Shown here in pieces: positions 4,231 through 52,621 of a stretch of DNA of 64,000 bases (positions are counted from its first letter, which is position 1; each line of letters opens with the position of its first letter). The notes beneath the pieces were generated by a model that was given only the letters and a program-made list of their open reading frames with translations, was not told where the DNA came from and searched no databases. A program made the translations under genes and the position numbers. The stretch is from Macrostomum lignano (lineage: Eukaryota). Location: assembly GCA_002269645.1 (NCBI GenBank), contig NIVC01001878.1, positions 1 through 64,000 on the forward strand, given 5' to 3'.

Positions 4231-4297
4231 CAGTGAAACTCAAGGCCCTACAAAGCTACAGGGACCGTAGAAGACCTGCAGGCAATCAGCAATTCAC

Positions 4298-6718: not shown

Positions 6719-7479
6719 TCTATATGCTAGAAATGACTAAAATTTAATAAACAAAACACCCTATATAAATCCTATTGCGCTGAAAAAGGAGTTACAAAGA
6801 CTCGCACACACAGACAAGTCAGTCAGTACACAATAGGTCTCAACAAGTGTACTTTTAAAGCAATGGCCGGTGGATCACAGACTGAACTTCCATTTATGAA
6901 ATATTATAGAATAGTTTTCAATAAATATTTAATTCCAGCAATTAAATATACCATCGCATGCATGTCAGTTGACCTAGAAAACAACACAAATGAAATAAAT
7001 ACAGTTATACATTTTTATTGTCAGCTTACAGACCGAATCTAGGGAAACAAGAAAGAAATGACACACATACTCTAGGCAAATTATAATAATAATATAACTG
7101 AACCGAACATGACATTAGCAAAACCTGATACATTGGAAGAGCAGGGTAGGCCATTCGAATGATTTGGCACCGCGAGAGACGGGCAACAACACAAATAGGG
7201 GCATGTGGCAGCTTGTCTGGATATTATTAGAGTAGCAAGCGGGAGGCTAGCAGCAGAAATTATATTATTGAAACACGGAAAAGATTTCTTAGAGTCAATG
7301 GACTAACCAAATATTTTTATTGCACTGGCAGAAGTAGTTCAACACACATAGCCCTCAGTAGCTTTGCTGTGATAATAAAATTATAATTTTAGCATAATGA
7401 AATACTGAAATCTATATATAAGGAGGAAAGGTTGGGTGCCATTTGAGAATATCAATTCATATCAATAGAATTCGCGGCG

Positions 7480-8585: not shown

Positions 8586-9919
8586 ATCAGATAGACAAGA
8601 TTTCCAGCAATTATTGAGTTAAATAAATAAGAAAATAAATTACAGTACAGCTATAGAACCCACAGTAGAATGAAGACCATAAAAGCGAAACATTTTAAAA
8701 TAAGTGAACCGAACTGGGACAGCTATAAGCAGAATACAGAGAATTAAGCAAAAACACAATTGGTAAAAAAGGCAAAATATCGATCCAACAAATAGCAGCA
8801 TTTCACCTCGCGAGAGACACGCATACATCAAAAGTTGCTTCAAAGAAATCAAAGAAAAAATCAAATTTATCAGAACAAAGATCACTGGGGAGGGAGGATC
8901 ATTTTTGCTTCTTTGTTTCAATACTTTCAGCTTGTATCGTTGCACAAAATAAGAGATAACGGTTGCATGCTATAAGCTATGTATAGGGATACGCAGGAAA
9001 AGCCTAATAATGTTTCATTACTTAAGTTTAATCTATGGTGATTCCTAAGATAGATAGAGGGTGATTCTTAAGGGAGATCGAGGGCGATTCCTAAGGTAGA
9101 TCGAGGGCGATTCTTAAATGAGATTTTATTACACCAAAAAATATATTTGAAATTAACCACAGACTGCCGCACAAAACGATAAGTAGGTATTGACGTAAAA
9201 TATGGAGAATCAGGCTAAATATTTTTCATCAAACTGAAAACAGAGCCCACAGTTACAACAGCTAGAAATTGTCTCAGTCCGCAAAAGCAAACAAACTAAA
9301 AGCATCTTGTGCCGAAATTAAGCAAATTGGTATCAAGTCGAATGAATCAGATATTCTCACACAGGTACAAAAACTGCCACGGGAACTTTACGGATTAATT
9401 GGACATTGAAGTTTGTAAATTAAATTTCTCTTTTTTTAGCATAAAAGCAAAAGACCTAAACAAATGTACACACTAAAGAGACCAGTTATATGCTAACAGC
9501 TAGCTAACAGCAGGTCAATGTCAGAGGAATAAGAGATAAAAGGCACACAATACGGATGAGCTAGATATGACTGCCCGACAGACAATCAAAGTTTAACATT
9601 CAAGTAATGGATGGCGTTATATAGGGTTTGGCAGTGGGACACAACCAAGTAATTTTTGTTAATTTCTCGATTCTAATAGTTAGGGAAAAGTTTTAATAAC
9701 CACTTTAAATATAAATATCGGTTATGTCGGTTAATTTTCTAATCGAGCACCTTAAGAACGTGAAATGATTTTCAACATTAATTTGCGTTACCATTGCGCA
9801 GAATTTTTTCAAGCGAATAAGAAATATTAATGAACACAGCACAATAACCGCTGGCAAATTAGAATACACATTAAGGGCTGTTTTAACAGCTTATTTAAAG
9901 AGGCCAGTCAAGACACCAT

Positions 9920-23308: not shown

Positions 23309-24007
23309 AATGATTTGTATAGAGTGGGGATGCTACACTCGCAAATTGTGTGAATTTCGTCAGAGGACAGCCGGTTGTCGCTGCATTAGAAATTGAGCAA
23401 GAAATCTTGCATTGTCACAACTCTGGACTTCAGAATTGCAAGTGAGGCAGATTTTTTTCTAATTTCGAGTCGGAATTTAAAAGAAGAATAATCAAATGTC
23501 ACTCGCAAAAAATGCGCTTATATTACTCTTTTCTCATGAGTAGCATACTAGCAAGCTGCGCCCCCCTTGGGGAGCCATGCACAAAGAAATGGAATACATT
23601 TTTTTTAATAAAGTACGTGTAGATTCTAAACTCAGCTTTGACATCTCAGATTCCCCCATAATCCTTGAAATCTCAGCAATACCTAAATCTAAGCCTTGAC
23701 ATCACAGTGCAGTAATTCCCCCATAAGCCTTGACATCTCAGCAATTCCCCCATTAAGCCTTGACATCTCAGCAATTCCCCCCAGTAAGCCTTGTGTAGTG
23801 ACTGTGCATCGGGCCTAGGTGTTGTAACTAACTAACTTTGAGGCTAGAATTGTTCAATTACTTTATATGCATCGTGCGTTCAATCATGGTATCGTTGTTT
23901 CGATTGCGTAACACTGTTTTCAACGTGCACATGAGTATAAATATATTGAGCGAGACTCAAGTGTCTCCAACTGAATTGAGTTTAATCAATCAACTAGAAC
24001 ACAACAA

Positions 24008-24805
24008 ATGGCGACGAGCGGACTTCCGTACCCAGCGGAGTTTCAACCAGTACCAGGCGAACCTCCTGTGCCATGGGCAAGGTGGATCAAGTCATTTGAG
24101 AACTTCCTGGTAGCTGGAGCTCTCGAAGAGGCATCAGAGAGTCGGAAAAAGGCGATCCTCCTGCATCTGCTTGGTGAGGAAGGACGCCGCCGAGCTGCAA
24201 ACGTCGATGCAAGCAAGTCGCTTCAGGAGACCAAAAAGGCACTGAAGGCGATTTTCAGCTCGTCGAGAAGCGTCATAGCAGAGCGCTTCGCCTTTCGGCA
24301 GCGAGCCCAGCACGACGGCGAGAGCATCGGAGACTACGTGATGGCCCTGAGAGAACTGGCAACAAACTGCAAATTTGACACCTTTCACGACGAAATGATT
24401 CGAGACCAACTTGTGGAGAAAACCTGCGTACCTCGCATTAGGGAAAGACTCCTGATGGAGGAGGACGATCTGACGCTAGATGACGCCATCAAGAAGGCTG
24501 AGCGAATCGAAGCAGCCATCAAAGATGCCAAGCAGGTCAGCGGCCCAGAGCTCCACGTGAAGGCGCTGAGCAAGAAGCCGAAGCCAGCTGCTCGCCATGA
24601 GAAGACCGCAGCAGCAGGTCCAAAGTGCACTCGATGCGGAGGCAACCACGGACACAAGGGCGAATGCAAGGCGATGGGCCAGAAATGCAGACGATGCGGC
24701 AAGGCGAACCATTTCGCGAAAATGTGCCGCATGAAAGCGGTCTCTGCGATCGACACCAAAGAGCCTGCAGAGTCCAGTCTGACGGTCCTGGCCGTGAACA
24801 ACTAG
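24008..24805 (+). CDS. gag: Gag of the Mag-like element (capsid-like region plus two Cys/His knuckles)
   Basis: WARWIKSFENF..., ERFAFRQRAQHDGESIGDYVMALRELATNCKF, EMIRDQLV, CTRCGGNH...C...CRRCGKANHFAKMC. Confidence 0.92.
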   Translation: MATSGLPYPAEFQPVPGEPPVPWARWIKSFENFLVAGALEEASESRKKAILLHLLGEEGRRRAANVDASKSLQETKKALKAIFSSSRSVIAERFAFRQRAQHDGESIGDYVMALRELATNCKFDTFHDEMIRDQLVEKTCVPRIRERLLMEEDDLTLDDAIKKAERIEAAIKDAKQVSGPELHVKALSKKPKPAARHEKTAAAGPKCTRCGGNHGHKGECKAMGQKCRRCGKANHFAKMCRMKAVSAIDTKEPAESSLTVLAVNN

Positions 24806-27800
24806 AGCACAGACAGCTTATTCTGCGAATGCCGTCTGGGCGGACAGCTGATTCGACTGCAAATCGACTGCGGTGCTGCCGTTTCGTTGCTCAACATGGA
24901 GACGTTCAAGAAGTCCTTCGCTAGGCACCCGCTGCTTCCGACGAGCACAAAACTGGAGGCATACGGCGGATCTGCGATCAAGACCATCGGCAAGGTCGAG
25001 CTTCCAGTGACGTTCAACGGCATCAGGACAGAAGCCACATTCTACGTCGCCGACAAAGGAGCGAACATCCTGGGCCGCGACCTGTTTCAGGCCCTCGGAT
25101 TCAAAATCTTCCAAGGTGACAACAGAGTGATGAGCATCAGCGAGACTACGATCGAGCGCGACTTCCCCGGAATCTTCGACGGTCTGGGCCGGTCCAAGAG
25201 CTTCATTCACCGGACAAAGATCGACGCCTCGGTCAAGCCAGTGTCTCAGCCAATGCGGAAGCTGCCGATCGGCCTGAAGGACGAAGTGACGTCAGAGATC
25301 AGCCGGATGGAGCAACAGGGCATCATTGAGAAGGTCGACGCGTCCGAGTGGGTTAGCAACGTTGTCGTGACGCGCAAGAAGGAGTCCAACAAGGTTCGTC
25401 TCTGCGTGGATCTGCGGCAGGTCAACAAGGCGGTGATCGCGGACCGCTATCCGGTACCGTCAATCGAGGACCTATCGGCCAGCATCAACGGCTCGAAGTG
25501 CTTCAGCAAGCTGGACCTGCGTCAAGGCTACCAGCAGATTCCGCTGCATCCAGACTCTCGAGGACTGACGTGCTTCATCACCGATGCCGGCCTGTACCAG
25601 TTCACCGTGGTGCCATTCGGGCTATCTAGCTCCGGAGCTGCCTTCCAGCGAGCCCTGCAGACGGTGCTTCGAGGAGCTCCTGGCGCCATCAACATCGTGG
25701 ACGACATCCTGGTGCACGGCAAGGACGAGACTGAGCACGACAAGAACCTCCGAGAAGTCCTAGGGCGGATTCATCGCGAAGGCTTCACACTCAATCGAGA
25801 GAAGTGCAAATTCCGGCAGGCGAGCGTGGATTTCTTCGGATTGGTCATCTCTGCAGACGGCATCAAACCGACCAAGTGCAACGTCGACGCAATTCTAAGA
25901 ATTCCTGAGCCATCAACGGTCGCGCAAATTCAATCGTTTCTCGGGGCAGTGAACTTTTTGCACAAGTTCATACCGCATTACTCAGCAATTGCCGAGCCTC
26001 TGAGACAACTGCTCAAAAGGGACGCGGACTGGCACTGGGGTGAGCGGGAACGTACAGCCTTCCGTACACTCAAGTCAGCCGTAACCAGCAGCCCAGTGTT
26101 AGCTCATTTTGACTGCCAAGCTGAGACGTACGTCACCTGCGATGCAAGTCTAGACGGACTGGGGGCAGTGCTCAGCCAAGTACAAAACGAAAAAGAGGTG
26201 CCAATCGCGTTCGCATCGAGAGCACTCAGCCCAGCGGAAAAGCGATACTCAGCCGGAGAGCGAGAAGCCCTGGCCTGTGTATGGAGCATCGAACGCTGGC
26301 ACTACTATCTATACGGCAGACGAGTAACGCTGCGCACCGACCACAAGGCCCTGACAACTCTGCTCGACTCGAAAGGCATGGGGCACAGGCCTCTTCGCAT
26401 TCATCGATGGGTCGAGAGACTTCGCGGCTACGACGTCCGGTTTGAGCACATCCCTGGCGCTGACAACAAGTGCGCGGACATGCTGTCCAGATGGGCCACG
26501 ACGGAGCGCGTTCCAGCCGAGGAGACCGACGAGGAGGGCTACGTCTACGCAGTCGTCGACTCGAAGACAACGCTGACGGCAGACGCACTGGCAACGGCGA
26601 CCAAGGAGGACGAAGTGCTGCAGGCGGTTTTGCAGTACATCTCGGGCGAGTGGCCAACGAAGGTGGACAGCTCTCTAAAGCCGTACTTCAACGTCCGGGA
26701 CGAGCTGTTCTGCTGGAACAACGGTCAGTGCCTCGGTCGTGGTGAACGCGCGATCATCCCGACGAGCCTGCGACTTCAAGTCATCGAGGAGGCCCACGAA
26801 GGGCATCCGGGCGTCGTTCGGTCAAAGCAGCGGTGCCGCGACACGGTCTGGTTTCCTGGAATTGACCGGCAGGTGGAGGACTACGTCAAGAACTGCACGG
26901 CCTGCACTCTGGCGGAGAAGTCCGGCAAGCCTCAACAGACGATCGTGACACCAATCGAGTGGCCAGATGGACCGTGGGACAAGGTCGAGATCGACATCTT
27001 CGGCGAGGTCGCCGCGGCTCCTCGACACCAGCGGTTTCTACTGGTGATCCACGACCTGTACAGCAAGTGGCCGGAGATTGCAGCCATGGAAACCGTCACC
27101 TCTGCCAACATCATCAAGACGCTTCGGAAGCTATTCGGCCGGTGGGGAGTCCCGAAGATGCTGATCAGCGACAACGGACCCCAGTTCGTCAGCGACGAGT
27201 TCGAAGAGTTCCTGCGAGCCGAGGGCATCAAGCACAGCCGAGTGAGCCGGTACTACCCGCAAGGCAACGGCGGAGTCGAGCGATTCAACCGGAGTCTGAA
27301 GGAGGGCCTGGCAGCGAACCTGAGGGCGGGAGCGAAGTTCGAGGACGCTATCGACCTGGTGCTCAAGACCTACAGGACCAGCCAGCACGCTCTCACCGGG
27401 CTGACTCCAGCCGAGCTGATGATCGGGCGCAAGCTGCGGTCCGGACTGCAGCTGCTCAGGCCAACTCCAGTGCAACAGCGGGACGACAGCGACCTGCGAG
27501 ACAGTATCGCACAGAGGCAAGCCAAGAATGCCGACTACACCAACAAGCGAAGGCGAGCTCGTGACTCTATGCTCCAGGCCGGAGACTGGGTCTGGCGACA
27601 GACGCCGCACCGAGCGCACAAGCTGGCGACCCGACTGAAGGAACCGCTAAAGATCGCCTCCAAAGCAGGGCGCAACACCTTCGTGCTGTCCGACGGTACA
27701 AAGTGGCAAGCGAGTCGGCTGGTTAAGTGCAGCAGCCCACCGGCTGACAACGGCGCGGCCGACCAAGAGGACGACTGGTTCGATTTGCCGCTGCCGCCGG

Positions 27801-27910
27801 CTCCGCCCCCACGGACGGGCGAGCCGCCACCTCCACCTGAACGTCGAAGGTCAACTCGAGCTCGACGGCAACCGGCGCGTTATCCTCTTCCGGAAGGGGG
27901 GAGAATGTAG
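24806..27910 (+). CDS. pol: Pol (aspartic protease-RT-RNase H-integrase) of the Mag-like element, same frame as gag after a UAG
   Basis: PR motif IDCGA lies upstream of the first ATG (24887); RT LCVDLR..N, KLDL..GY.Q, PFG, VDDIL; RH CDAS..GLGAVL, EREALA, TDHK; IN HHCC (H..H...C..C) and D-D-E (HDLYSK, SDNGPQF, GVERFN). Confidence 0.95.
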   Translation, partial: STDSLFCECRLGGQLIRLQIDCGAAVSLLNMETFKKSFARHPLLPTSTKLEAYGGSAIKTIGKVELPVTFNGIRTEATFYVADKGANILGRDLFQALGFKIFQGDNRVMSISETTIERDFPGIFDGLGRSKSFIHRTKIDASVKPVSQPMRKLPIGLKDEVTSEISRMEQQGIIEKVDASEWVSNVVVTRKKESNKVRLCVDLRQVNKAVIADRYPVPSIEDLSASINGSKCFSKLDLRQGYQQIPLHPDSRGLTCFITDAGLYQFTVVPFGLSSSGAAFQRALQTVLRGAPGAINIVDDILVHGKDETEHDKNLREVLGRIHREGFTLNREKCKFRQASVDFFGLVISADGIKPTKCNVDAILRIPEPSTVAQIQSFLGAVNFLHKFIPHYSAIAEPLRQLLKRDADWHWGERERTAFRTLKSAVTSSPVLAHFDCQAETYVTCDASLDGLGAVLSQVQNEKEVPIAFASRALSPAEKRYSAGEREALACVWSIERWHYYLYGRRVTLRTDHKALTTLLDSKGMGHRPLRIHRWVERLRGYDVRFEHIPGADNKCADMLSRWATTERVPAEETDEEGYVYAVVDSKTTLTADALATATKEDEVLQAVLQYISGEWPTKVDSSLKPYFNVRDELFCWNNGQCLGRGERAIIPTSLRLQVIEEAHEGHPGVVRSKQRCRDTVWFPGIDRQVEDYVKNCTACTLAEKSGKPQQTIVTPIEWPDGPWDKVEIDIFGEVAAAPRHQRFLLVIHDLYSKWPEIAAMETVTSANIIKTLRKLFGRWGVPKMLISDNGPQFVSDEFEEFLRAEGIKHSRVSRYYPQGNGGVERFNRSLKEGLAANLRAGAKFEDAIDLVLKTYRTSQHALTGLTPAELMIGRKLRSGLQLLRPTPVQQRDDSDLRDSIAQRQAKNADYTNKRRRARDSMLQAGDWVWRQTPHRAHKLATRLKEPLKIASKAGRNTFVLSDGTKWQASRLVKCSSPPADNGAADQEDDWFDLPLPPAPPPRTGEPPPPPERRRSTRARRQPARYPLPEGGRM

Positions 27911-36737: not shown

Positions 36738-37974
36738 GTGAGCGGGTGGGTGACCCAGAGCCCATCTGGTTGGTAATCCAACGCAATTCAAGAGTACTGT
36801 GTGATGCAGTGAGCAGGTACTGGTGAGGGCGAGAGGCAGAGACAGCTCTTTTACAGCACATTTGAATTGCAAGCCCAGTACAAAGTTTAGCGGGTGGCAA
36901 GCTCCAAGTCACCACGTGTACAATCCGGGCCCCCAGACCAGAAGGGATGGGAGTGTACATTGTATGTACGATTATTCCTTTCTTTTTAATTAGCCAACTT
37001 AACTCAGCCCAACGACGAACGCCATCCATGCAAGCATCGCCAAGCAATCGCATGCAAATGCAATGCGGTATGCAGCTTAATCTGAAGAATTTTGGTTCAA
37101 AAGTGTCGGCGGGCAAACTTTGGCGGGCAAACGTCGTACCCCTATGGTAAGATGGGGTTGTAGATGTGTTTTCGTATTTCTCAATAAACCGCTCAGCTTG
37201 CCTACCTTCCCTTTCCACCCCTTATGGGGTGAAAAGCGGTCATCAATAGTTGCAGCCGAGGCAGTCTTAGCTGCCAGCTGCAACCCGCTTCGCGCTCAGA
37301 AAGGCAGGCTAGTGCTCGTCCTCGCGGGTTTGGGTCCAGGGTCAATTTTGGTTGACGTCCTGGCGATACATACTATAGAAATGATCCCTAAAAGTATGAT
37401 CTTGAAGATTGAGTGGCAATTTCAACTGGCATATGTGTGACCACTGGTAACATGGTGAATGAAAACTTCGTTTTCGTAAACTCGCTAATTTGAAATTTCT
37501 TTGACCTGAGTACTAGGCCGTTAAAATATTATTATAAACTCATAAATACACGGTTCACCTACTTTTCCAATTGGATTTGATGTTTACTGCTATTGTATCA
37601 GTGTTCAAACAATTAGACGAGTAGGGGGTCAAATATACTACACGCATAATACGTCGTGCTACTTAAAGTAGACGAAAAGCTTTTATTTTGAAAAATCTGT
37701 AATTTATTAATTGACGGGTCTCCGACTGTTGGGCTGCCTTACTGGAGGCGCTTCTCGGGTTGTGCGCGCAATCCAATTGACCTGCCGTACTCGGGTACAA
37801 TTATTAAATGCCCCCTCACCGGAAGTGATGTGCATTCTAAAAATAACTTCTTTCTGCCCTGCCCGGCCAGTTTTGATGCCTGCAGCCCGGCCCTGATGAT
37901 CGAGGCTGAGCCGTTGAGCCCCAGGTACTTGTAAATGTATGGTGATCGTCCATTAATTATTTGTGTTTTTATCC

Positions 37975-39012
37975 TATAAGAGTTAGAAATCTGAAGTTTT
38001 GACCCCAAGTTAGAAGATAGGTAGAAATTTATGAAAAGCCCAGGCGCAGTGAAGGGCGAGGCAGAAGAGTACAATGGAACCCCTATATAGCTATTAGAAG
38101 AGCAAACAGAAGCAGCTTTAAGATAATTAATCAACTGTCAAGTCAATTTGAATAGCCGAATCTAACAAAGCCTCCTTCCATTCCAGTTAGTAGCGTCACC
38201 CCGCCGCAGGCACAATGGCGACTAAACCGGCCGGGAAAAGCAAACTGAGCAGCAGCCTGACTTAGAGAACAACGCGGCACGCGGCATCTTCTGGCGCACC
38301 CTGAGGGAGAAAACGTGAGGCCCACCTAGAGACTCCTACCCAACCCGAAGCTGCCCAAGAAGGCGAGATCAACCCCAAGCTGCCTGACAACCGAGAGAAA
38401 CAGAGGACTGTTTAATCATTCATGGACAGAGTGTAGAGACGGAAAACTAAGCACTTTTTCTATAATCTTTCTATCCCAAATTTTATCCAACTCAACACAT
38501 AGATTTGCGAAAGCCCGAATAATCTCTAACCTTCACACTTAGCAACCTACTAGAACTAACTAAATTCATGTACAATTAGGGGACTGAGTCCCAGTTTGTT
38601 ATTGCTCAAAACCCCCCGCCGTTGCTAACAACGCGAAGACACCCCACCGGCGGCGGGGGAGGCCAAACATGCTAATTGGTACAAATAGACGCTCATCTCA
38701 AACTGGAGCGGCGCTTCGTTTTTTTCCTGCGCAGTTATTCGATCTTGAATTGCTCCATTTGAATTAGTTTCTGGATTATCCAGTTGGCAGAAACCCGAGT
38801 CTCAAATCGATCATTTGCCTTAACTGTGACATAGGGCAAATCTTAGGGAGACTCCAACTCAGCTTAGATACTAGGAGATCCCGTCAGTTTATACGGTCTT
38901 CTCTGACGGCCTGATAGGAGAGACTAAGAGCTGTAAGAACCTTAGACCGCTAGACATCTATCTTAAGAAAGTGAGAACGCGAACTCAAAGGCCCCAGAGA
39001 AAGACGCGTATA
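37975..39012 (+). repeat. 5' LTR of the large element
   Basis: Direct repeat of 50724-51761 at offset 12749. Confidence 0.97.
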
Positions 39013-39014
39013 AG

Positions 39015-39027
39015 TGGTTCCCTGACC
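39015..39027 (+). promoter_or_regulatory. Primer-binding site complementary to tRNA-Glu(CUC)
   Basis: TGGTTCCCTGACC, 2 nt after the LTR; complement of the conserved tRNA-Glu 3' end GGUCAGGGAACCA. Confidence 0.85.
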
Positions 39028-40571
39028 TCGGAGTCATCTGATCAACAGCTCTTCGATTTTCACCTGACGAGATCGCCCGGTATGGCTGAGTAACTTCATC
39101 GGCGGAGGACGGAGCGTGGAAGGCCAGGATGAGTGCAGTCACCTTTTAATTCTCTTTCTACGTAATTACTCTGTGTCGTAGAAGGACACAAACGCGTCCT
39201 TATTCAAAAAGAAAAAATTGATAAAATGCTAAAACGAACAAAAAAAATTGATAAAATTCGAAAACTAACAAAAACAATTAACTGTATTACCTTCCCTGGT
39301 GATGAACAGCGTTTCACTGCCAGTGGACACATAGACTAACCATACTTTATCTGTTCGCGTAGAAGAGAATTTAATCAATTTTAATCACTTAACACTGTCT
39401 AAGAGGGTAGCTACCTGGATACCATAATTGATTTTGTCTAACAATTGAATAATCATTTTCTGTTGAAACGGATCCGTAATTTATAATCCAGCCACAAGGT
39501 ATGGCAATAATCCAGCCACAAGCTATGGCAAGTACCGTGCACGGGAATTACTTTTGATCACTTTAATCGACTGATCACTAAGGAGCTCACTTTACTAATT
39601 GCGCGCGCGAGTTTGGCCCGCGGGAAGGCAGGTCCTTGCGGGGAGAGTTCTACTCTCGGCAGCAGGGTTGACGTAAAGAATAGAGGTGCGAGTCACTGAG
39701 ATGTCCTTATCCGGATCGGGCATCTCCCTGCCTAGCACTTCCATTCTGCACAGACGCCCGCCCGTGTCACTGCACCCTGCCAGTGTAGTGTCTTAGGGTT
39801 GTTAAACTAACACGTCTGCCCCACCAGGCATAGCTACATAAACCCTCGTTAATACTGAGCTCACTTTTCAAGGCATCTCAAGCCAACATAATACTGCTAA
39901 CAGCGGGAAAGCCCGCAGAAATGAGTGATACTAAAAATAACTACAGCATTCCGCTATTTCCAGCTGCGCAACCTTAGCCATTCCAGGAGAAGCGCTACTT
40001 TTGATTGAATTATATTGTTAACCATTTATTAGGCGCACATAACAAAGCCAAGCAGAATCAATTCAAATGAAATTGTCCAGTTGCCTTCGAATTCATAGCT
40101 GCACCGGCACACTCCAAAGCCTGCGGGCACAGTCAATTTAATTCTCAATAAGTACACATCTTGCGTTATATTGCATAAACGTTAAATGCGGAATTTTGTT
40201 TTATTGCTTGAAATGACAGTCACTATGACAAAATGCATATAGCAACACTATAATTATTTTACAACAAATGCGAATTGTTTGGTACAACAAAAACCCACCC
40301 CGACTGCACCGCCTGAGCCTGAAGCGTATCCTAACCTCTGCCCCTTCTCAATTTGTCTATTTAAAACCGTTTAATTGCTCACTAGCAGACCAGCACTGCC
40401 AACGATATTTTGTTTGTCTTTTATTATACTACTTGCAACCTGAATCGTACCAATTTTTTGCGGCCCACACCGCAACGTTTACAAGCGCATCCTCACTTTT
40501 TGGAAGATTACCAAGCTCCAGACCCTACAGGTCTACCTAACAATCGACGTACTGCCCAAGCCAGAAGGCGC

Positions 40572-42269
40572 ATGCTTCAACAAGAAGAACAGCACCAAGA
40601 AGACTTGCATCAAGACGATCCTCAACAAGACCAGCAACAACCAGAAGAAGCACTACAAGACAACATGGCCGAAGATTTAGCGCAACTACAGGAGCGTATC
40701 AACGACCTGACAAGACAATTGGCACTGCAGCAGACCCGAGATCTACCGACAGTTGTCCAAGCCATCAAGCTATCAGTAGGAGACTACGAAATGGGACGCT
40801 CATTCGTCCGTTGGTTACGAGAGTTCGAACTTCAAGCGCAAACATATGGACTGGGAAATGCTGAGAGATGTCGACTACTACCACTACTGCTACGACCGAA
40901 TGCTCGCAATCAATACTCAACTCTGGACGAGGCAACTCGCCTGAACTACGAGGAACTGATACCAGCACTACGGGCAATGTTCGACACCCGAAGGATGGAC
41001 CGATCAACGGCGATTCTACAACTGGCATCCCGCAAGATGCAACCGGGAGAAGACGTCAACAAATTCATCGCAGATATCACCAACCTGGTCGAGAACTCCG
41101 TCTATCAAGAACCAGCCCCGGAAGAAGAAAATGCAGCAGATGCGGCACTACGGCGACAGAGGAACCAACGGATCATTCAAGATCACATCATGCTACACGT
41201 CCAGCAGAACGCAGTTCCGGCACTACGACTTCACCTAGCCAGAGGACGCTATCAAACAGTGACGGAAATGACTCGAGAGGTACTGCAATGGCAAGCACTT
41301 CACGACATTGAGCGAGAAACCGAGGACACCCGCAAGCTATCGGCATTGGTCGCCCAGATGGAGGCGACGATCAAGACAGTGAACAACAGACCGCAACAGT
41401 CATGGAACAATCCACGCCCGCGAAGCGGAAACGCAGCGACAAGCTGCCAGTTATGTCAGAAGCAGGGACATACGGCAGACAGGTGCTATCAGCGCAACCG
41501 ACAGCAAGGCGCTAGCCCAGGAAGCAGCCGTCAACAGCCACAAGGAGCCAGAGGCACCAGCAGAAACTGCAACAATTGCGGTAAGCCTGGCCATTTGGCC
41601 GCTCAGTGCCGACGTTATTGTCACCATTGTAAGCAGAAGTCTCACTGGACAGTTGAATGCGACCGCCCGAGCCCCCAGAGACAGGGCCAACCGGCTCAGC
41701 GTCAAGGATACCCGAGCAATAGGAATAACGGCTATCAAGGTCCTCAGCACAATAACGGCTACCAAGGTCCTCAATACAACAACGGCCGACCAAATCAGCA
41801 ACGGCAACCACGACAAATCGCGGAAGTAACCGAGGAACAACCTCAGCAACAGCCACCGGCAGACATTCTAGCTGTGTTCACCCAGGAAGAAGAGAAAACA
41901 GCGGAACTAGTGGTGACTCGCGACGACTTCATTCAAGCTCGACGACAGCTCCGCAAAGCAGCCAAGGTCAAGATTGGCTACAATACAGCGGTGACACCAA
42001 CACCGCAACCACGGCAAACTGCAGAAGTAACCAAGGAGCAGCCTCAGCAACAGCCACCGACGGACACTCCAGCAGAGTCGACCAAGCAAAAAGAGACAGT
42101 TACGGAACCAGCGGTAACCCGCGACGACATCATTCAAGCCAGGCGACAACTTCGCAAGGCAGTCAAGGAGGTCAAGATCGGCCACATCACGACGCGACAC
42201 CAACACCGCGCTCCGAGAGCGACCGGACGAGAAGCAAGAGCGACCACAGAAGATCGAGAAATGTCCTGA
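40572..42269 (+). CDS. gag: Gag with three CCHC zinc knuckles (frame open from at least 40410; first ATG at 40572)
   Basis: Capsid-like SFVRWLREFELQAQTYG...LLPLLL...YEEL..ALRAMF; CQLCQKQGHTADRC, CNNCGKPGHLAAQC, CHHCKQKSHWTVEC. Confidence 0.92.
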   Translation: MLQQEEQHQEDLHQDDPQQDQQQPEEALQDNMAEDLAQLQERINDLTRQLALQQTRDLPTVVQAIKLSVGDYEMGRSFVRWLREFELQAQTYGLGNAERCRLLPLLLRPNARNQYSTLDEATRLNYEELIPALRAMFDTRRMDRSTAILQLASRKMQPGEDVNKFIADITNLVENSVYQEPAPEEENAADAALRRQRNQRIIQDHIMLHVQQNAVPALRLHLARGRYQTVTEMTREVLQWQALHDIERETEDTRKLSALVAQMEATIKTVNNRPQQSWNNPRPRSGNAATSCQLCQKQGHTADRCYQRNRQQGASPGSSRQQPQGARGTSRNCNNCGKPGHLAAQCRRYCHHCKQKSHWTVECDRPSPQRQGQPAQRQGYPSNRNNGYQGPQHNNGYQGPQYNNGRPNQQRQPRQIAEVTEEQPQQQPPADILAVFTQEEEKTAELVVTRDDFIQARRQLRKAAKVKIGYNTAVTPTPQPRQTAEVTKEQPQQQPPTDTPAESTKQKETVTEPAVTRDDIIQARRQLRKAVKEVKIGHITTRHQHRAPRATGREARATTEDREMS

Positions 42270-45200
42270 CACTGACGAGCCCAAGCCACAGATAGCGATT
42301 CGACAGCCGAGAACTACACCGACATGGAGCCAAAGCCGACGAACAGCCTCAACCACAGGATGGCTGCTGCGAATAGTACTGCTCGCACTGTTCTGCACCG
42401 CGGCTGGCAACGCAACAACGGCACAGCACAGCAGCTACGTGGACACACCACTCTACTGCCCAGAAGCGAACAGCCTTCAAGCCTTCAAATTGCCTCCGGA
42501 CATCGAATGCACAGTCCCGAGTAGCATTCAACAGCATCGGCAACCGATCAACATCACAGTCTACAAGGAGAACCAGGTATCACACCGGTCTACACTGAAG
42601 ATATGTTACCGAGAGACCTACACGTTCACGAGTAAGCCACAGATTGTTGTAACATCACAAGTGGTAAGTCCAGCCATGACTGTTACTGTGCAACAACATT
42701 CAGTTTCGAAGGACGATTGTAAAACATGGGAAGAAAACACCCGAACCCAAGATGGGACTTTAGAAGCAGGAACTAAGGCTATGGGACAAGCTAAAAGATT
42801 CATTACCCATAAGTGGACAACCCAGGAATTGGAACCTACAGCCAGTACAGCTCAAACCTTCACTCAAACAGTGTCAGTCCTAATCACCCAGGTCTCATTC
42901 TTTGTGGAAGAGAAAAAGATGTCTTCGTTAGCCCTCCCTATAGGTCAATGCGACTACAAGACAGGAACCTGTACCACGACTACTAGCCTCACGGCAGAGA
43001 AGGACTCGCCACTGAACCGACAGGCACCAGACAGACTCTGGGCCGTAATGGAATACTATGATCTCAGCTACACAGTGAGAGGAGATAGACAATACCGCCT
43101 AGTATGGACACCCAGCGCAGAGATAGACTGCCCCTATCAAACAGACAGATTCATTCAAGGCAAAATTCACACTGGATGGTTCATGTCTAACGACGCTACG
43201 TTTGCCCTCACATTCAAACATCCACCTCAGACTAAGGACTTACAATGTGGAGACACGACAGTAAAGCTATACAAGTCGGAACAAGGTAAACTAGTCCAGG
43301 TGCACGGCTCAGACCAAGAGTTTCGCAGCATAATTGAAGGTTCATTCAACAATTCAAGCACCGCTAAGAGACCAAAACGAGACCTCACATCGGACACAAC
43401 GCTAGCAGCAAAATTACAAGGGCTAGAACTCACAATGGAAGACAGAATAGGCGACCTTACTCGAAACATGATACTACAACAATGCAAGCATCAGCAAACA
43501 CTGTTTCGGTACATAAAAGATCTTTTTCTTATGCAGCCCACCCTAGCAGCGCGCACTTTGTTCAAAGACAGCCAATTAAAAGCCACCACGCTAGCACAGC
43601 ATGTAGTCATTTCTAAGTGCCTACCCATCAGAAACTTTCGTTTTCACCAACCAAGATGGGATGAGAATATCTGCTTTACCAAACCACCAATTGCCTTCAC
43701 GATATTCAACATGAACCACACAGGCTTTCTAGATGTTAGAACCCTGGAAATCCAAAAGGAACACCCGCCATTTCACGATTGCTCTAACCAAACGTCGTAT
43801 TTCCTACCAAAAGGAGACGAAATCTACAAAACAGACCTCAACTTTACGAAATTTACTGTGCAAACGGTCACTAAGCTAGAAAGAGAAGCGTGGGGGGTAA
43901 CCCTCATAAAACCCCCAGAGATTCAGCATGTCATATTCACTCCTGATGGAGACATCAGGATAGCCGATCTCAAAAGCCCGGTCACAGTACACGACTTGTA
44001 CAACCAGCTAAATGACCAGAGAGAGTTCTTAAGAACTGTTTTCAAACTGCCCAAGTCAGAAACCTCTCACTCTATACATCTTCCACCGTTAGATGCCACC
44101 ATAGCGGAAGGCACCTTTGATCCAGCAAGTTGGCTACCATGGCTAGGCATGCGAGTGAATCTTTTCGATATCGCTGTAGGAGTAGCTGCCATTGGGTTCT
44201 ACATATATCTTTTATACCAAATGATCCTTATCTGCCACAGACTCAACAAACAGAAGTACCAACGTCCTGGCATCCGCACGATCCAGCGCAAAGCTGCTGC
44301 AAAGCAAGAACAGCAGGAGCTACAGGAGTTACGAGCACCGCTAGTAGCGAACTCGACAAGCCAGAACACGCGGCAGGAGACCACGACAACCAGACAGGCA
44401 CCACAGCGCCCGCCACCGTGGACGCCACCAGCACCAGCATCAACAGGACTCTACCCGAAGATAGAGTCCAGTTGGCCACCTCCGATGGTGGCGACGGTCA
44501 ACAACGGCCAGAAGCAGAAGTACACAATCACCCGACTTCAAGTGGGAACGCGATCCTGCCGAGCCCTGATCGACAGTGGAGCCGAACGATCCTTAATCGA
44601 CGAAGCCACAGCAAAGCGATACGGCAGGACCTTCAAGCCGGCCACAGTTGAACTGCAAGGAGTACAAGGCTCACGACTACAGCAATCCGGCATGATCAAC
44701 CTCCCTGTGGAAGCTGGCGACACCACGGCTGACGTTGAGTTCCACGTTATTCCCAATTTGAGTTCAGGAACTTATCAAGTCTTATTAGGCATCGATTACT
44801 TATCTCAACTAAATCAGGGCGTGCTCGTAAACTATCAGCAACAGAATATCCATCTCAACGGGAAATGCTATGACATCCTCGCTATCACTACAAAAGAACC
44901 CGTTAACTGCATCAGATTAGTCTCTACAGTCAATCTCAATCCATGGGAAACAACTCGAATTTCCGCAAGAGCCATCGCCAGAGAGAAACTACCTCCAGCT
45001 ATGCTTTTCGAACCCAACGAACGTATCCTAGAGAAGAAACCCATTTGCCTTACACCCGAATTGGTATACCCTGACGAGTCAGGAGAGGTTCAAGTCATCA
45101 TTTCAAACGAATCGGCAACCCCAATGACACTATATCCAGACACCAACATAGGATCTTTCGATACAGAAATCCAAGCCTTTGAAATTGCCGAAATCCAGTC

Positions 45201-45450
45201 AGAAACCCCAACAATGACGGAACAAGAGTTCAAGAACGCCATTGATCTCAAAGGATCCAACCTGACAGAATCCCAGAAAGAACAGCTCATTAAGGTTCTC
45301 TGGGACAACAAGAAAGCCTTTTGCCTATCCGAGGAGGAAATAGGATACACAGATGTAGCGAAACACGAGCTTCACATTAAGCCTAACGTGGAGATTAAGC
45401 TCAACAAACGGTACCCAATCCCATACCAACTCACGGGAGAACTCCAAAAA
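42118..45450 (+). CDS. env: Env-like glycoprotein fused in frame to aspartic protease and the start of RT (frame open 42118-45645, no in-frame ATG before the signal peptide)
   Basis: Hydrophobic signal-like WLLRIVLLALFCTAAG at 42361, Cys-rich ectodomain with N-glycosylation sequons, furin site RPKR at 43369-43380, TM at ~44161-44235, then ALIDSGA protease motif at 44563-44583 with no intervening stop. Confidence 0.85.
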
Positions 45451-48185
45451 TCATCGATAGAATGGAAATGCAAGGAATTCTTAGAAAAGCAGCCACCCCG
45501 TACATCTCACCAATTCTATTGGTCAAGAAGAAACCGGAATCGCCTCAAGCCAAACCAGTGTACCGTCTCTGTGTTGATTTTCGGGACCTCAACCAAATCC
45601 TGGTCCCAGAAAGGCAATGCATGCCCCGAATCCCAGACCTCTTAGCCAAATTAAAGGGATCAGAATATTTCACTACTCTCGACATGGCGCAAGCATTTTT
45701 TCAAGTGGCGCTAGAAGAAGAAAGTCAGAAGTATTGTGGCATCTCCACGCCCGACGGACAAACTTACGTCTTCACCAGAGCCCCAATGGGTCTACAAACC
45801 TCACCAGCAGCCCTCTCTAGAGCAGCTAGCTTAATCCTTCAAGGGATTAACAGAGTCTCAACATACGTAGACGACCTACTTGTCTTCAATGAGACATTTG
45901 AAGACCATCTCGAGACATTGAAAGCTACACTAGAAGCTCTAGGAAAGTACGGCATGAAGTTGAAATTACAAAAGTGCAAATTCGCTAAGCCCACAATCAC
46001 ATTCCTAGGACATAAGATAGACAAAAATGGAATACAGATTGATAGAGCTTTAGTCGACAAAGTGCAGAAGGTACCAAAGCCACAAAATGTCACACAGCTC
46101 AGATGTTTCCTAGGACTCTGCAATTTCTTTCGCAAACACGTACCTAACTACGCCAAGAAAGCCAAGCCACTCACAGACCTGCTTAAGGGCACACCGAACA
46201 CTAAGGCTCAAGCATCCAAAACCCCACTAAAGTGGACAGAAGAAGCGACCCAGACCTTTGAAGACATGAAAAAATGGATAGCAGAAGATCTCAGACTCAC
46301 TCACCCTGACTTTAATAAACAGTTCATTGTCTCCAGCGACGCTTCTACAAAAGGCATAGGCGCAATGCTCTCACAGAAAGATGAGACAGGAAAAGAAAAA
46401 CCAATAGCATTCACGAGTCGACAACTGAGAGAGGCAGAGACAAGATATGCGGTCACCCATTTAGAACTCTTAGCCGTCTTTTACGCATTCAAGACATTCG
46501 AACAATTTCTGTACGCAGCACAAATACCCACATTGCTAAGAATAGATCATGCACCACTCAGAGGTCTACTCACAGGGAAAACCCTGCGGAACAATCAGGT
46601 ACTCAGATGGCTTCTCTATTTACAACAGTTTCAAATGCAAATTGAGTACGTCCCAGGCGCATCCACCAAACACGCAGTCCCAGACGCACTCTCAAGACTA
46701 TATGAGGACCAAGAGACACCCATTAACTTTGTCACGATCAAGCACCCGATACCACACCTGCAAGCCTTAAAAGAGGCTCAAGCAGAAGACCCATTCTGCC
46801 AAGGCATTCGAGCACTATGGGAACAAAAGCCCATGGATGACAGCTTAGCTATGAGATACAAAAGACACATCCAGCGACATCTATCGGACTATGCGGATAT
46901 TCACGGAATCATTCACAGGACAGCAGATCACACCCAACAAATAGTGCTCCCATTCAAGTACCGTGAAACAATCTGCCACTCGTTACACGCACTACCACTA
47001 GCAGCGCACTTAGGCTTTGACAAAACCCTAGAAAGAATTAGGCGACACTATTTTTGGATCTCAATGGTTTCCGATATTCGAACCTTCTGTCAAGACTGCA
47101 TGGATTGCGCTAAGAACAAATCTGGCCAACTGCATAAGGGACTCATCCAAATGCCTGAAATTCCGATGAAACCAATGGACAAGCTATCAGTAGACCTAGT
47201 AGGACCCATGGTCCCCACGAAAATCCGGAACGAGACCGTCACCCACATCCTGACTATCCTGTGTTGTTTTTCAAAATTCGCCTTTGCATTCCCGATTCCA
47301 GATCTATCAGCAGAAACCACAGCCGAAACTTTGTTCCAAGTCTTCTGTATGTTTGGAATCCCGATGGAAATTTCCACCGATAATGGAAAAAATTTCACGG
47401 CATCGCTATTAGCGGAAGCTCTAGAAATTCTGGGAGTCAAGCACATCTTCTCGTCTACCTACCATCCGCAAGCAAACCACGTAGAGAGACTACACTCTAC
47501 CCTACATAACATGCTTAGACATTACACTGCGGAGAATCCAAACGAATGGCATAAATATCTATCAGCCACAATCTACGCCTACAATACAGCCAAGCAATCC
47601 TCTTCAACTTATTCTCCCTTCGAATTGGTTTTCGCAAGGAAACCCCTGATGCCCACAGAGCTCACAACTCAGCTGAACCTAGTAAGATACATGGATGAGC
47701 CGTCCTATGCAGCCCGAATGCAAGAAGCTATCACCCTGGCTAGAGACATAGCCAGACACCATCTCAAAGTGGCCCAGGAAAAGAACACAGGCAGAGCTAA
47801 CAAAAACCGAATGGCCCCTACATTAGCCATAGGCACCAGAGTTATGCTACAGATCCCAATGAGACAGGGAAAGCATCAAGCCAAGTTCACGGGTCCATAC
47901 GAAATTGTGAAAAGAAATAGTGTCACGTCCGTCATGATAAGGAAAATTGACGATCCGACTCAAGAACCCTTTCAGGTGCACACGGACAGGCTAAAGCCAA
48001 TAGCATCGCCAACACCTAAGGTACTGCTCCCCGATCTGCGCCCGAGTGATCCGCGAAGACTGCAACGCCAGCACCGGCAACTGTTCAGCAAGGAAGTGGG
48101 CGTACAAGCTGATGACGAGACGCTCGCGGACACAGTTCGAAAGAAGTACAATCTAAGGAGCAAACCCATACTCCTAGACAAATGA
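45451..48185 (+). CDS. pol: Pol: RT-RNase H-integrase, continuing the previous ORF after a 1-nt frame break in the A-run at 45446-45450
   Basis: SPILLVKK, RLCVDFRDLN, TTLDMAQAFFQV, PMG, YVDD (45864-45875), SDAS..GIGA, HLELLA, IN HHCC, VDLVGP, STDNGKNF, HVERLH, GPY. Confidence 0.95.
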
Positions 48186-48345
48186 TGTCAGGAGATGGGG
48201 GGAGAGTACAGAGACTATAAAGACTATTTGATTTACGTATTCATTCGTTGGCGTGCTGTGCACACTAGATATAGATATCCACACTAACTATTCACTCAAA
48301 TATCAATACTTAATTTTACCCTTCTAAAATTACTCATTATACCAG

Positions 48346-49128
48346 ATGTATGACCGACAGCTCGATACGCTAGATGACTGTACCCTGGGAGACGAAGATA
48401 CCCAGACACCGTGTCCTATAGTTCGACCTCTCTTCAAGCCAACATCTCACACCGAAACTGATGACCCTAAGTGGCCCGAGCAAGATATGTCAACATGGAC
48501 AGAACAACAGCTGGACAAGCTACGACAGGAATGGCAACGACGCCGACCTACGCTCCCACGACAAGCAAGCACGGCAACATCGGCGAGCAACGATTTCCGC
48601 CAGGCTAAAACACTCGCAGAGCGATTCCAAACAGCTCTGGCGGCACAGACGGTAGTTCAAAGCAAGCCGGCGCGGTATGATGAAACGAAACTGTTTGACA
48701 TTCACCAGCAGATGCTTGACATGCCACTAATACCCGCTAACATCGTCACACACCTTACTACGCGACGCATCCTGTCAGATCCTAAAGACCCACGCTGGTT
48801 ACTCTCTGACTATTCTATCTTGAACTTCAACACGACGCTCTTTTTCCTCTACGACGACACAGCTGCGTTCTCTTGTCTCCGTATCATAGTATGGAACAGC
48901 AGGGTGACGACAACCCTAATCCATCCTCGTGGACCGACCAGCACACTATCACTCCAAGCCGACATGCTTATCACTTATCTACTCAACACCTTAAATTATC
49001 ACGGCATCGAAATCAAACCCAAGGAACGGCAATCGATAGCCACGATTGCGTATTCACCGGCCAACCTACAATGGCACCACCTTTTCACAGCGTTGAAAGC
49101 AGCAGAAGGCCCCAACCTGGACCCTTGA
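48346..49128 (+). CDS. Accessory ORF of unknown function downstream of pol (260 aa)
   Basis: ATG-initiated, non-repetitive, protein-like composition, inside the LTR element; no recognised family. Confidence 0.6.
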   Translation: MYDRQLDTLDDCTLGDEDTQTPCPIVRPLFKPTSHTETDDPKWPEQDMSTWTEQQLDKLRQEWQRRRPTLPRQASTATSASNDFRQAKTLAERFQTALAAQTVVQSKPARYDETKLFDIHQQMLDMPLIPANIVTHLTTRRILSDPKDPRWLLSDYSILNFNTTLFFLYDDTAAFSCLRIIVWNSRVTTTLIHPRGPTSTLSLQADMLITYLLNTLNYHGIEIKPKERQSIATIAYSPANLQWHHLFTALKAAEGPNLDP

Positions 49129-49608
49129 GGTGCTATAGGAAGGCCCGGTTGCAAGAGAACAAAAGGATAATACAAGGGATGAAATACTGCCCTAGGGTTG
49201 TAGCGAATTGGTGGGATACCAATCCGCCTCATCCCTGAGGCACCTTCACCCACAGGTACGCTCCTTTGTTCAATGCAGCCTCACAGCAGGGCGGTCTACT
49301 CTTGGGATAAGACTAGACCAAACGAAAGTGAATTTTTGAAGCGAGCTACAACGCTATATAATCTAACACTAACCACATTAACCTTGAAACAAATTGTATC
49401 CACAAATATTGCTCATCCTGATAATTTTTGCACCCGAATTGTATCTCTCGATATATTCTCTATGTTACTCTTTATTCTCAACGTCGTGATATTCGACGCC
49501 CACTGACACTTATACACCCGATTGATAACCATGTTTATGACATACAAAATAGACTTCCCGAATATATATTGTTATTAAATAATCTAATCAATGCAATCAT
49601 TTTGCTTA

Positions 49609-49869
49609 CTAGGCAGGTAGGGCCTGGTAACGACGCCGGTAGAGGCAGCAGAATAATAGAACTAGGAGTAGACACAGGAGGAGGCCGCCGCCCCCCACTC
49701 CGCCCAGCCAACCTTGTAGTGTACGTAGCCCATAATCTTGCGAAACCGATCGTGATTCCAAGTAAAGCAGTCGCCGCTCGAGACCGACAGACCGGTCTTC
49801 CACGGCGTGTAGACGCTCCTTCAACTCGCCAATAATGCGAATCAAACGTTGCATAGCAAACTCAGACAT
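49609..49869 (-). CDS. Antisense accessory ORF: small coiled-coil protein with a C-terminal transmembrane anchor (~86 aa from ATG 49869)
   Basis: Heptad-like LIRIIGELKERLHAVEDRSVGLERRLLYLE, then GGGGLLLCLLLVLLFCCLY and RRRY stop-transfer. Confidence 0.5.
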   Translation of the reverse strand: MSEFAMQRLIRIIGELKERLHAVEDRSVGLERRLLYLESRSVSQDYGLRTLQGWLGGVGGGGLLLCLLLVLLFCCLYRRRYQALPA

Positions 49870-50185
49870 AATGAGATCAGTTAGCGTTAAGGGCAATCGG
49901 AAAACAAGCTGAATAGATAACTTTAGGGGCTACTCTCACATGCGCCGCGTTTAAAAACGGAAGGAGCCGGCGATTAGAAAAGAAAGGACCCCCCCTGCGG
50001 CTCCAAGTCCAGATTCAAAACCCCTCCCCCATGCGTCCCGCCACACCCACCACCCCATGTACGCAGGGGATAGATCTAATGTACAGTCGAACCGCTAAGC
50101 GAAGCTTTAGGCCAAGGACGATACACACTAAAACCGCCACACGGAAAATCAATAGCACACTCTTGCTTAATTTCAGAGCATTCCC

Positions 50186-50503
50186 ATGGCCACTTACTCA
50201 CCCGAAGACGCTTATGCTCGGCGACCCGGCGAAGCCTTTGTGGACGTAAATCTCCACGTCCACAAGTGCATCAAAAAGGATGCGCAGACGCAAGTCGCCG
50301 AGAGCGACATAGATGGGGGCCATTCAGTGGCCACCCAAGTTGACAACGACGCCGAGTGGGGACGCGAGATGACCCCCACGGAGATACCGTGGAGGGGAGG
50401 CGACTACACGGCCTCCAGTACCATTCGACCCTGGCCCACACTGCAGGGATATCGTCAGTACCTATGGGCCAGAAGCGGCAATGTTCAGCTTGAAGATGAC
50501 TAA
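50186..50503 (+). CDS. Possible small acidic accessory ORF (105 aa) before the PPT
   Basis: ATG in good context (CCCATGG), protein-like; no family recognised. Confidence 0.4.
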   Translation: MATYSPEDAYARRPGEAFVDVNLHVHKCIKKDAQTQVAESDIDGGHSVATQVDNDAEWGREMTPTEIPWRGGDYTASSTIRPWPTLQGYRQYLWARSGNVQLEDD

Positions 50504-50723
50504 ATACGGCCCATAGATACGACTGTGAACTGTTTCCCCTCAATTAATTTCCCAGGTTTCGCCTCTTTACACCTTTAACTATCTACGTCTCCAGACGCTT
50601 GACTCGTATACAGATTTCTAACGTCTTATATTTGATAATTTCAGTACCTGCAATGTCGTTTAGCCCTGATGTCGATTGATCAAATCCTTGTTAGCACAAG
50701 GATTTCGAAAAAAGGGGGAATCA

Positions 50724-51761
50724 TATAAGAGTTAGAAATCTGAAGTTTTGACCCCAAGTTAGAAGATAGGTAGAAATTTATGAAAAGCCCAGGCGCAGTG
50801 AAGGGCGAGGCAGAAGAGTACAATGGAACCCCTATATAGCTATTAGAAGAGCAAACAGAAGCAGCTTTAAGATAATTAATCAACTGTCAAGTCAATTTGA
50901 ATAGCCGAATCTAACAAAGCCTCCTTCCATTCCAGTTAGTAGCGTCACCCCGCCGCAGGCACAATGGCGACTAAACCGGCCGGGAAAAGCAAACTGAGCA
51001 GCAGCCTGACTTAGAGAACAACGCGGCACGCGGCATCTTCTGGCGCACCCTGAGGGAGAAAACGTGAGGCCCACCTAGAGACTCCTACCCAACCCGAAGC
51101 TGCCCAAGAAGGCGAGATCAACCCCAAGCTGCCTGACAACCGAGAGAAACAGAGGACTGTTTAATCATTCATGGACAGAGTGTAGAGACGGAAAACTAAG
51201 CACTTTTTCTATAATCTTTCTATCCCAAATTTTATCCAACTCAACACATAGATTTGCGAAAGCCCGAATAATCTCTAACCTTCACACTTAGCAACCTACT
51301 AGAACTAACTAAATTCATGTACAATTAGGGGACTGAGTCCCAGTTTGTTATTGCTCAAAACCCCCCGCCGTTGCTAACAACGCGAAGACACCCCACCGGC
51401 GGCGGGGGAGGCCAAACATGCTAATTGGTACAAATAGACGCTCATCTCAAACTGGAGCGGCGCTTCGTTTTTTTCCTGCGCAGTTATTCGATCTTGAATT
51501 GCTCCATTTGAATTAGTTTCTGGATTATCCAGTTGGCAGAAACCCGAGTCTCAAATCGATCATTTGCCTTAACTGTGACATAGGGCAAATCTTAGGGAGA
51601 CTCCAACTCAGCTTAGATACTAGGAGATCCCGTCAGTTTATACGGTCTTCTCTGACGGCCTGATAGGAGAGACTAAGAGCTGTAAGAACCTTAGACCGCT
51701 AGACATCTATCTTAAGAAAGTGAGAACGCGAACTCAAAGGCCCCAGAGAAAGACGCGTATA
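50724..51761 (+). repeat. 3' LTR of the large element
   Basis: Direct repeat of 37975-39012; preceded by the PPT, followed by TSD TATCC. Confidence 0.97.
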
Positions 51762-52621
51762 TATCCCTTTTTGTTTTACTTTTTGGTCATGAGCCAACTT
51801 CAAAATTTTCGCCCCAGTTTTTCTTTGCGCGCGCACACTCGTTATTTATGGATCGTTTGCATGGTGGGTGGCTGGGCACTGGAGGGGATCCTAACGCAAC
51901 TGCGCCTCTAGCTTAAACCGTGTCATTTTTCTAAAGAAACTGACTGTATGCAAAATACAAGTATTTACGGAAGCAGAATAACGCGGTGTCCCCATAGGTT
52001 TAATTGGGTCCTGTATCGCTATGCTAGGGCCAGATCCTAGCCCCAATCTTGGTCCCCTACACATCTACATGTAGATCCCGCGGCAGAGCCCTTCCCTGGG
52101 CTGACCCTAGGCGAGCTTAGCTCTCCACACCCTGTTTAAAAACAGTATTATTGTACTTTCGAATTAAAAATTCCAACCTAAAGATAAATCGAGGGACCGA
52201 AAGAAGACGAGAAGAAAGATATTATTTTTCCAAAATTACGGTAAGCATAGCCCGTGTTTCTACTACATGTAGCTGTTAGTAGTTTAATGTTTAGATGCAC
52301 AATCGGAAAAAATATGAAAATTTTTCTAACTTGATCTCTAATTGATAAATGTACTCCTACATGTAATTAAAAATACGATCATCCGCAGCTCCCTGCATCT
52401 TCCATTCTGCACCTTTTGTTACTGGGAGAGGACGACTTTTCGTCTCTTTATTTTAGAGACCTTAATAACATTACAGGTAAGTCTTTAATTATAATTTGTG
52501 GAACTGTAATCTCAAAGCATAAATTAGCATTTTAAAGCATAACTTGTGATTTTATGCTTTCCGTTTATTGCTTATCGGCGACGAGCTATGCACTTGATCT
52601 ACTACGATGCATGACATATAC

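Follow-up and report, generated by a model that had tools for sequence, protein, structure and literature searches.

A young Ty3/gypsy element of Macrostomum lignano with a gB-type env inside a predicted Gag-Env-Pol polyprotein

Analysis of a 64,000-nucleotide stretch of the Macrostomum lignano genome (contig NIVC01001878.1, positions 1 to 64,000; hereafter the window) revealed a Ty3/gypsy element of the GAG-ENV-POL kind with a gB-type env, which we consider likely to encode a single polyprotein in the order Gag, signal, Env, transmembrane (TM) anchor, cytosolic tail, protease (PR), reverse transcriptase (RT), RNase H (RH) and integrase (IN). A preliminary description of this stretch had placed env between gag and pol and fused to the protease, and both the reading frame and the Pfam domains agree with it. 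The novelty that it implied for the gene order does not stand, as gB-type gypsy elements of this order are already published for three phyla (PMC13524379, in its accessible text). What seems undescribed in the family is an antisense membrane gene and a set of budding-like motifs in the Env tail.

Both the window and its relatives point to one frame from gag to integrase. In the window, 1,175 codons without a stop (42118-45645) carry Env and PR, and the whole span from gag to integrase (40572-48185) amounts to 2,538 codons, with one frame break in the Gag-Env linker (~42.2 kb) and another at ~45.45 kb. Because 4/4 sequencing runs (4 of 24 listed, from four studies) lack both breaks at full depth, as does the genomic copy L031, the breaks are most likely assembly errors; private damage to the window copy is possible. 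Contigs from these runs merge copies and so reflect the prevailing form rather than the window locus; in all four runs they matched the Env-TM-PR stretch of the window. Gag and env share one phase in 7/7 long copies from the same genome and in 4/4 runs. In three of these copies (L031, L032 and L033) the CCHC knuckles, signal, furin site, TM, DSG, YxDD and HHCC motifs all fall in one frame, which in L031, itself broken in 5' gag, extends over 2,458 codons; L034 and L037 are open from gag through PR, and L035 and L036 contain stops in phase. The best protein match, P0001 (M. lignano, 2,852 aa, 29% identity), has the same layout, as do P0022 from Globodera rostochiensis and P0030, P0138 and P0155. 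The Env-PR frame of the window lacks a Met upstream of the signal (its first Met is at 42676), and in L031 and L034 the stretch from nucleocapsid (NC) to signal is devoid of Met. Since gag is in frame elsewhere, the unit is Gag-Env-Pol rather than Env-Pol, which replaces the separate gag open reading frame (ORF) and the Env-Pol unit of ~2,020 codons proposed in the preliminary description.

The junction of Env with PR is common to many families. A search of the M. lignano genome with the end of the ectodomain, TM, tail and PR returned 121 matches, 82 of which spanned TM to DSG; 72/82 were stop-free, which speaks against both chance and a nested insertion, and 17/82 lay in frames 2,300 codons long or longer. 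Identity ran from 100% down to ~23%, a range which argues that the junction is shared across families. Comparison with the sister family L035 over seven segments (Gag capsid, ectodomain, tail, PR, spacer, RT-RH and IN) gave proportions of nonsynonymous differences (pN) of 0.11-0.33 and of synonymous differences (pS) of 0.78-0.87, indicating at the sequence level that all parts of the polyprotein are under purifying selection. The preliminary description had called the arrangement a working design and had named a stop or an LTR-bounded insertion between TM and protease as what might undo it; the stop-free matches, the 4/4 runs and the lack of an internal pair of long terminal repeats (LTRs) uphold the former and leave little room for the latter.

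Profile and structure searches indicate that Env has a class III fold of the viral-fusogen type, in answer to an earlier question about the nature of the ectodomain. Pfam placed Monjiviricetes_fusion on the middle frame (E 3e-7), and an Env profile built from 51 relatives matched Epstein-Barr virus gB (E 9e-19). An alignment-based model (pLDDT 76.6, pTM 0.51), which took the place of a discarded single-sequence fold (pLDDT 32), matched PDB chains of herpesvirus gB (lowest E 5e-22) and, among BFVD entries, Nyavirus G best (E 8e-27). A single-sequence search of solved structures gave no match for env, and a word-based homolog search and a viral-contig scan gave none either, blanks that do not show absence. 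Herpesvirus gB and the G proteins of Nyamiviridae/Monjiviricetes thus have profile and fold matches, a furin site and a TM anchor in common with the window Env, which differs from them in its low identity (10-16%), its retroelement polyprotein context and its atypical loop tips. Relative to L035 the ectodomain shows pN 0.24 and pS 0.83, with the cysteines and the furin site conserved. We infer cleavage behind the predicted internal signal, and the pattern of charges and sequons fits the topology proposed in the preliminary description, with the ectodomain in the lumen and Pol on the cytosolic tail. The ectodomains of P0001, L032 and L037 are longer (800-870 aa vs 585 in the window), with ~200-280 aa inserted.

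Pol is, by its sequence, of the Ty3/gypsy (Metaviridae) type. Pfam domains follow the order PR-RT-RH-IN, and RT-RH-IN matched, among solved structures, Ty3 Gag-Pol (E 1e-79), foamy virus (2e-32) and HIV (1e-10), so that yeast Ty3 is the closest solved structure. Ty3 itself has no env and makes Gag-Pol through a frameshift. The window Pol is not BEL-type and env does not lie 3' of the integrase, which sets the element apart from BEL/Pao elements with env. In an RT-RH tree of 45 rows, built by a quick method without bootstrap and with a single named nematode protein, the window grouped with L035, P0001 and L033 (SH-aLRT 95), apart from the clade that holds the Globodera protein (SH-aLRT 99), and its RT was thus not monophyletic with nematode elements on this tree. 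The env labels on the tree are imperfect, P0030 and P0079 having been overlooked despite Pfam matches to env before PR. Nematode endogenous retroviruses (NERVs) reportedly have a continuous gag-env-pro-pol ORF, a nyamivirus-like env and extra ORFs. The continuous ORF recurs in the window family, whose RT, unlike that of the nematode elements, groups with P0001 and families of its own genome.

We propose that the polyprotein is initiated at gag in the cytosol and that the internal signal would direct the ectodomain into the endoplasmic reticulum, where signal peptidase would cut behind the signal and Gag would be kept at the membrane through the signal stub. The TM would then halt transfer, leaving Pol to trail on the cytosolic tail; these topology steps, in which the signal opens translocation and the TM closes it, follow standard rules for membrane proteins. 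Furin would cut at RPKR, and trimerisation of Env might crowd the attached protease domains, leading to PR dimerisation and to the release of Gag and Pol at the site of particle formation on the membrane. Recruitment of the endosomal sorting complexes required for transport (ESCRT) for budding would fall to late-domain-like motifs that the Env tail carries instead of Gag. The predicted output is Gag:Env:Pol at 1:1:1, without a frameshift or splicing of env, in particles that would ferry the element from cell to cell, with the germline as the probable destination. Flavi- and alphaviruses make polyproteins that alternate across the membrane in a comparable manner.

The budding step draws on motifs that in retroviruses bind ALIX, TSG101 or NEDD4-type ligases. 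Motifs of the LYPxL type, P(T/S)AP or PPxY occur in 5/5 distinct tails from the M. lignano genome, and no late-domain-like motif was found in the window's gag. In a wider set of 43 tails, merged to 22 distinct ones by joining those that were near-identical, the LYPxL type occurs in 4/22 (shuffle mean 0.12, with 0/500 shuffles reaching 4), P(T/S)AP in 5/22 (shuffle mean 0.23, with 0/500 reaching 5) and PPxY in 3/22, a count reached by 4/500 shuffles. Several observations weigh against the proposed polyprotein and its processing. The motif counts rest on related sequences and the LYPxL variant was picked after sight; 14/22 tails have no such motif at all, and three motifs lie outside tails, in L037 and P0001. 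That Pol is packaged via Env and set free by the protease, as the preliminary description proposed, is hypothetical, and the protease-site motif is not enriched before PR (4 in 408 residues vs 52 in 7,237 ectodomain residues). Met residues are present shortly upstream of the signal in L033, L037 and P0001, and 10/82 matches spanning TM to DSG contain stops. Superposition of the Env model on solved gB gave TM-scores of 0.23-0.38 with a large root-mean-square deviation, which together with the pTM of 0.51 leaves a likeness at the level of domains only. The tips of the putative fusion loops, placed from predicted secondary structure and with the alignment read by eye, lack aromatics in the window and L034, unlike most relatives, and the second loop of the window is polar, the first being aliphatic and hydrophobic. 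Finally, the polyprotein is predicted from DNA sequence, and the RNA label of the runs is a guess. Near the protease, a hydrophobic patch noted by eye 25-31 residues ahead of the catalytic Asp may be the protease's first strand, and P0079, P0076 and P0007, which have env before pol, each contain two protease-like motifs or domains.

Two genes lie 3' of pol. The first, an ORF of 260 aa, had 29 matches in its own genome, with 41-43% identity in sister families and pN 0.41 vs pS 0.78; word-based and Atlas searches returned no family and no relative outside this genome, blanks that do not show absence, and it did not match an ORF in L037. A weak Pfam match to APP_E2, below cut-off, was dismissed. 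The second, on the opposite strand, encodes 86 aa and had 32 matches in the same genome, 31 of them stop-free, at identities down to 43%. In 13/13 copies pN was below pS (omega 0.10-0.49 in the 12 unsaturated comparisons, all pairs including the window copy), and in 12/13 copies the TM is followed by basic residues, indicating, as judged from these alignments, that a small membrane protein is conserved under purifying selection. The predicted protein resembles the sORF2/FAST proteins of MDG1-group elements, as characterized in the accessible text of PMC11952523, in being small, with one TM, basic residues clustered behind it and an amphipathic part. It differs from them in its antisense orientation, a start with MS instead of the N-myristoylation start MG, a longer ectodomain (TM from about residue 60) and the presence of an Env beside it; all 105 candidates of that text are sense-oriented. 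We regard it as a candidate functional analogue of sORF2/FAST at most and do not assign it as a member. Gypsy elements often carry additional ORFs 3' of pol, according to the accessible part of PMC5408684.

Among other explanations for this organization, the one with most to commend it accepts the single frame as real and has splicing yield the working products, either gag alone or a gag-pol that skips env, so that most Pol would be untied to Env and the 1:1:1 output would not hold. Capsids require far more Gag than Pol, copia and errantiviruses do splice, and the 1.5-kb leader could house a donor. Every segment, including the tail, is in frame and under purifying selection, however, which fits use of the read-through product, and we consider splicing of this kind unlikely. 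Contigs of three runs labelled as RNA, labels that are guesses, contained no joint across env and are uninformative on splicing or expression. Rather less probable still is that Env has ceased to be fusogenic and serves as a membrane scaffold and budding organiser, with transfer between cells by another route such as the antisense protein. The loop tips without aromatics are consistent with such a loss, as is the conserved small TM protein with its Cys and basic cluster, partly like sORF2/FAST (PMC11952523, accessible text). In contrast, the whole ectodomain is conserved as described above, cysteines and furin site included, the first loop has kept its aliphatic, hydrophobic character, and the small protein does not start with MG and is longer in its ectodomain (~58 aa vs ~30). 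A combined scheme, also improbable in our estimate, would shift virion assembly onto Env, with Gag and Pol tethered to the membrane by the one polyprotein and the budding signals in the Env tail, use the antisense protein as a second, FAST-like route between cells and let the fusion loops of Env drift; if true, the element would follow a two-fusogen or scaffold-Env plan, neither of which has been described for any retroelement in the literature searched.

Programmed frameshifting between separate Gag and Env-Pol frames would account for the different, overlapping frames of gag and env in the window, but is contradicted by their common phase in 4/4 runs and 7/7 long copies (L035 and L036 with stops in phase), and a scan of 41800-42400 with a slippery-heptamer pattern gave no match; this possibility is already largely refuted and we give it very little credence. 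That the order arose by accident, through nested insertion or an assembly chimera that placed env in a gag-pol element, might be suspected in a repeat-rich assembly with frame errors. It is refuted by the recurrence of the junction in dozens of loci with identities of 23-100%, in other animals and within single run contigs, together with the lack of an internal LTR pair, and we regard it as next to impossible.

The window element belongs with those reported by Chary and Hayashi (eLife 2026, PMC13524379), whose accessible text describes elements of Nematoda, Bryozoa and Platyhelminthes that carry only a gB-type env, in the order GAG-ENV-POL and in separate clades. Like these, the window element combines Ty3/gypsy pol with a gB-type env that sits between gag and pol, and has LTRs and several near-identical copies; a gB-like ectodomain lies between signal and TM, and the order occurs in separate host clades also in our RT tree. 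A table of that paper contains one curated M. lignano element, from which ours differs in LTR length (1,038 vs ~864 bp) and in its primer-binding site (PBS; tRNA-Glu vs another). The paper also counts, in ENV-POL order, 93 POL and 51 ENV matches for M. lignano, so the window family may have been among the uncurated ones. Its main text does not contain the terms 'polyprotein', 'single ORF', 'fused', 'in-frame', 'frameshift' or 'late domain', its Discussion describes the mechanism of entry and transmission of gB-type elements as unknown, and it cites Sacco et al. 2022 (doi 10.1099/jgv.0.001739) for nematode elements in which env and pol have swapped places. In the openly readable literature we found no report of ESCRT-like motifs in an Env tail or of an antisense membrane protein, and the literature searched held no description of the orphan 260-aa gene or of fusion loops without aromatic tips. 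Many young families of the Gag-Env-Pol design are present in the M. lignano genome. Three predictions follow from the sequence: a single precursor that signal peptidase, furin and PR process, an Env tail that carries ESCRT motifs, and an antisense membrane protein encoded separately. Should they hold, an enveloped retroviral particle could be built without frameshifting or splicing of env, which would be relevant to the way in which retroelements originally linked a captured fusogen with capsid and enzymes.

The full element is wider than the span of 40572-48185 first given for it (Table 1), with the two further genes 3' of pol included. All the signs of recent activity listed in the preliminary description were found: matching LTRs, a target-site duplication (TSD), a PBS and a polypurine tract (PPT). 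The two LTRs match without interruption over 1,038 bp (0 mismatches in 1,037 bases compared), and the window env is near-identical at four other loci of the genome (97-100% over env; 76 matches in all). By these marks this is a young, recently active Ty3/gypsy element with env inside the polyprotein. Its LTRs end in TATA...TATA, not TG...CA, as in L004 and L009; L009 is a separate LTR copy bordered by its own 5-bp duplication. At the inner edge of the 5' LTR, contigs from the sequencing runs diverge from the window at 39012/39013.

Table 1. Positions of the element and of its parts in the window
Feature	Position	Strand	Remarks
Full LTR element	37975-51761	+	13.8 kb, Ty3/gypsy; LTR pair, TSD, PBS, PPT
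TSD TATCC	left 37970-37974, right 51762-51766	+	5 bp; flanks both ends of the element
5' LTR	37975-39012	+	1,038 bp; termini TATA...TATA
tRNA-Glu primer-binding site	39015-39027	+	13 contiguous bases complementary to genomic tRNA-Glu 3' end plus CCA
gag	40572-42269	+	first ATG 40572; three CCHC knuckles 41445-41660; frame break in linker ~42.2 kb in window
Linker repeat pair	41801-42168	+	167-nt unit present twice at a spacing of 201 bp (78% alike); between Gag and Env
Internal signal sequence (predicted)	42352-42408	+	basic residues before, hydrophobic core, small residues at end
Env ectodomain (predicted class III)	42412-44166	+	585 aa; herpes gB / nyamivirus G-like
Furin-type RPKR	43369-43380	+	motif
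Transmembrane anchor	44176-44232	+	5 K/R after vs 1 before; C-terminus cytosolic
Cytosolic tail joining Env to PR	44233-44526	+	late-domain-like LYPKI 44449-44463
Aspartic protease	44527-44814	+	DSG at 44572; Pfam E 1e-8
RT, RNase H, integrase	45399-48185	+	YVDD at 45864; window frame break ~45.45 kb
Accessory ORF	48346-49128	+	260 aa; no family assigned
Antisense small ORF	49609-49869	-	86 aa; heptad-like amphipathic N-part, Gly-rich stretch, TM, Cys, basic cluster, YxxL
Polypurine tract	50707-50720	+	purine run
3' LTR	50724-51761	+	same as 5' LTR

A 1.5-kb leader (39028-40571) and a 0.8-kb 3' spacer (49870-50706) lack long ORFs and may contain packaging, splice or antisense-promoter signals. 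Several copies are internally deleted: L008 (contig C255) joins gag up to ~41765 to the 3' region from ~49022, L004 (contig C1405) retains LTR and leader and, of the 3' region, its last part, and contigs C2712 and C1205 contain further copies of this sort. It is possible that these four are non-autonomous derivatives of the element.

Elsewhere in the window, a second gypsy element (23975-27910, + strand) encodes a PNMA-like gag and an RT-RH-IN of 1,033 aa; neither of these two frames matched env. Tandem-repeat arrays with a strong strand skew occupy positions 1-4236 and ~5800-8650, and the long open frames within them are probably repeat artefacts.

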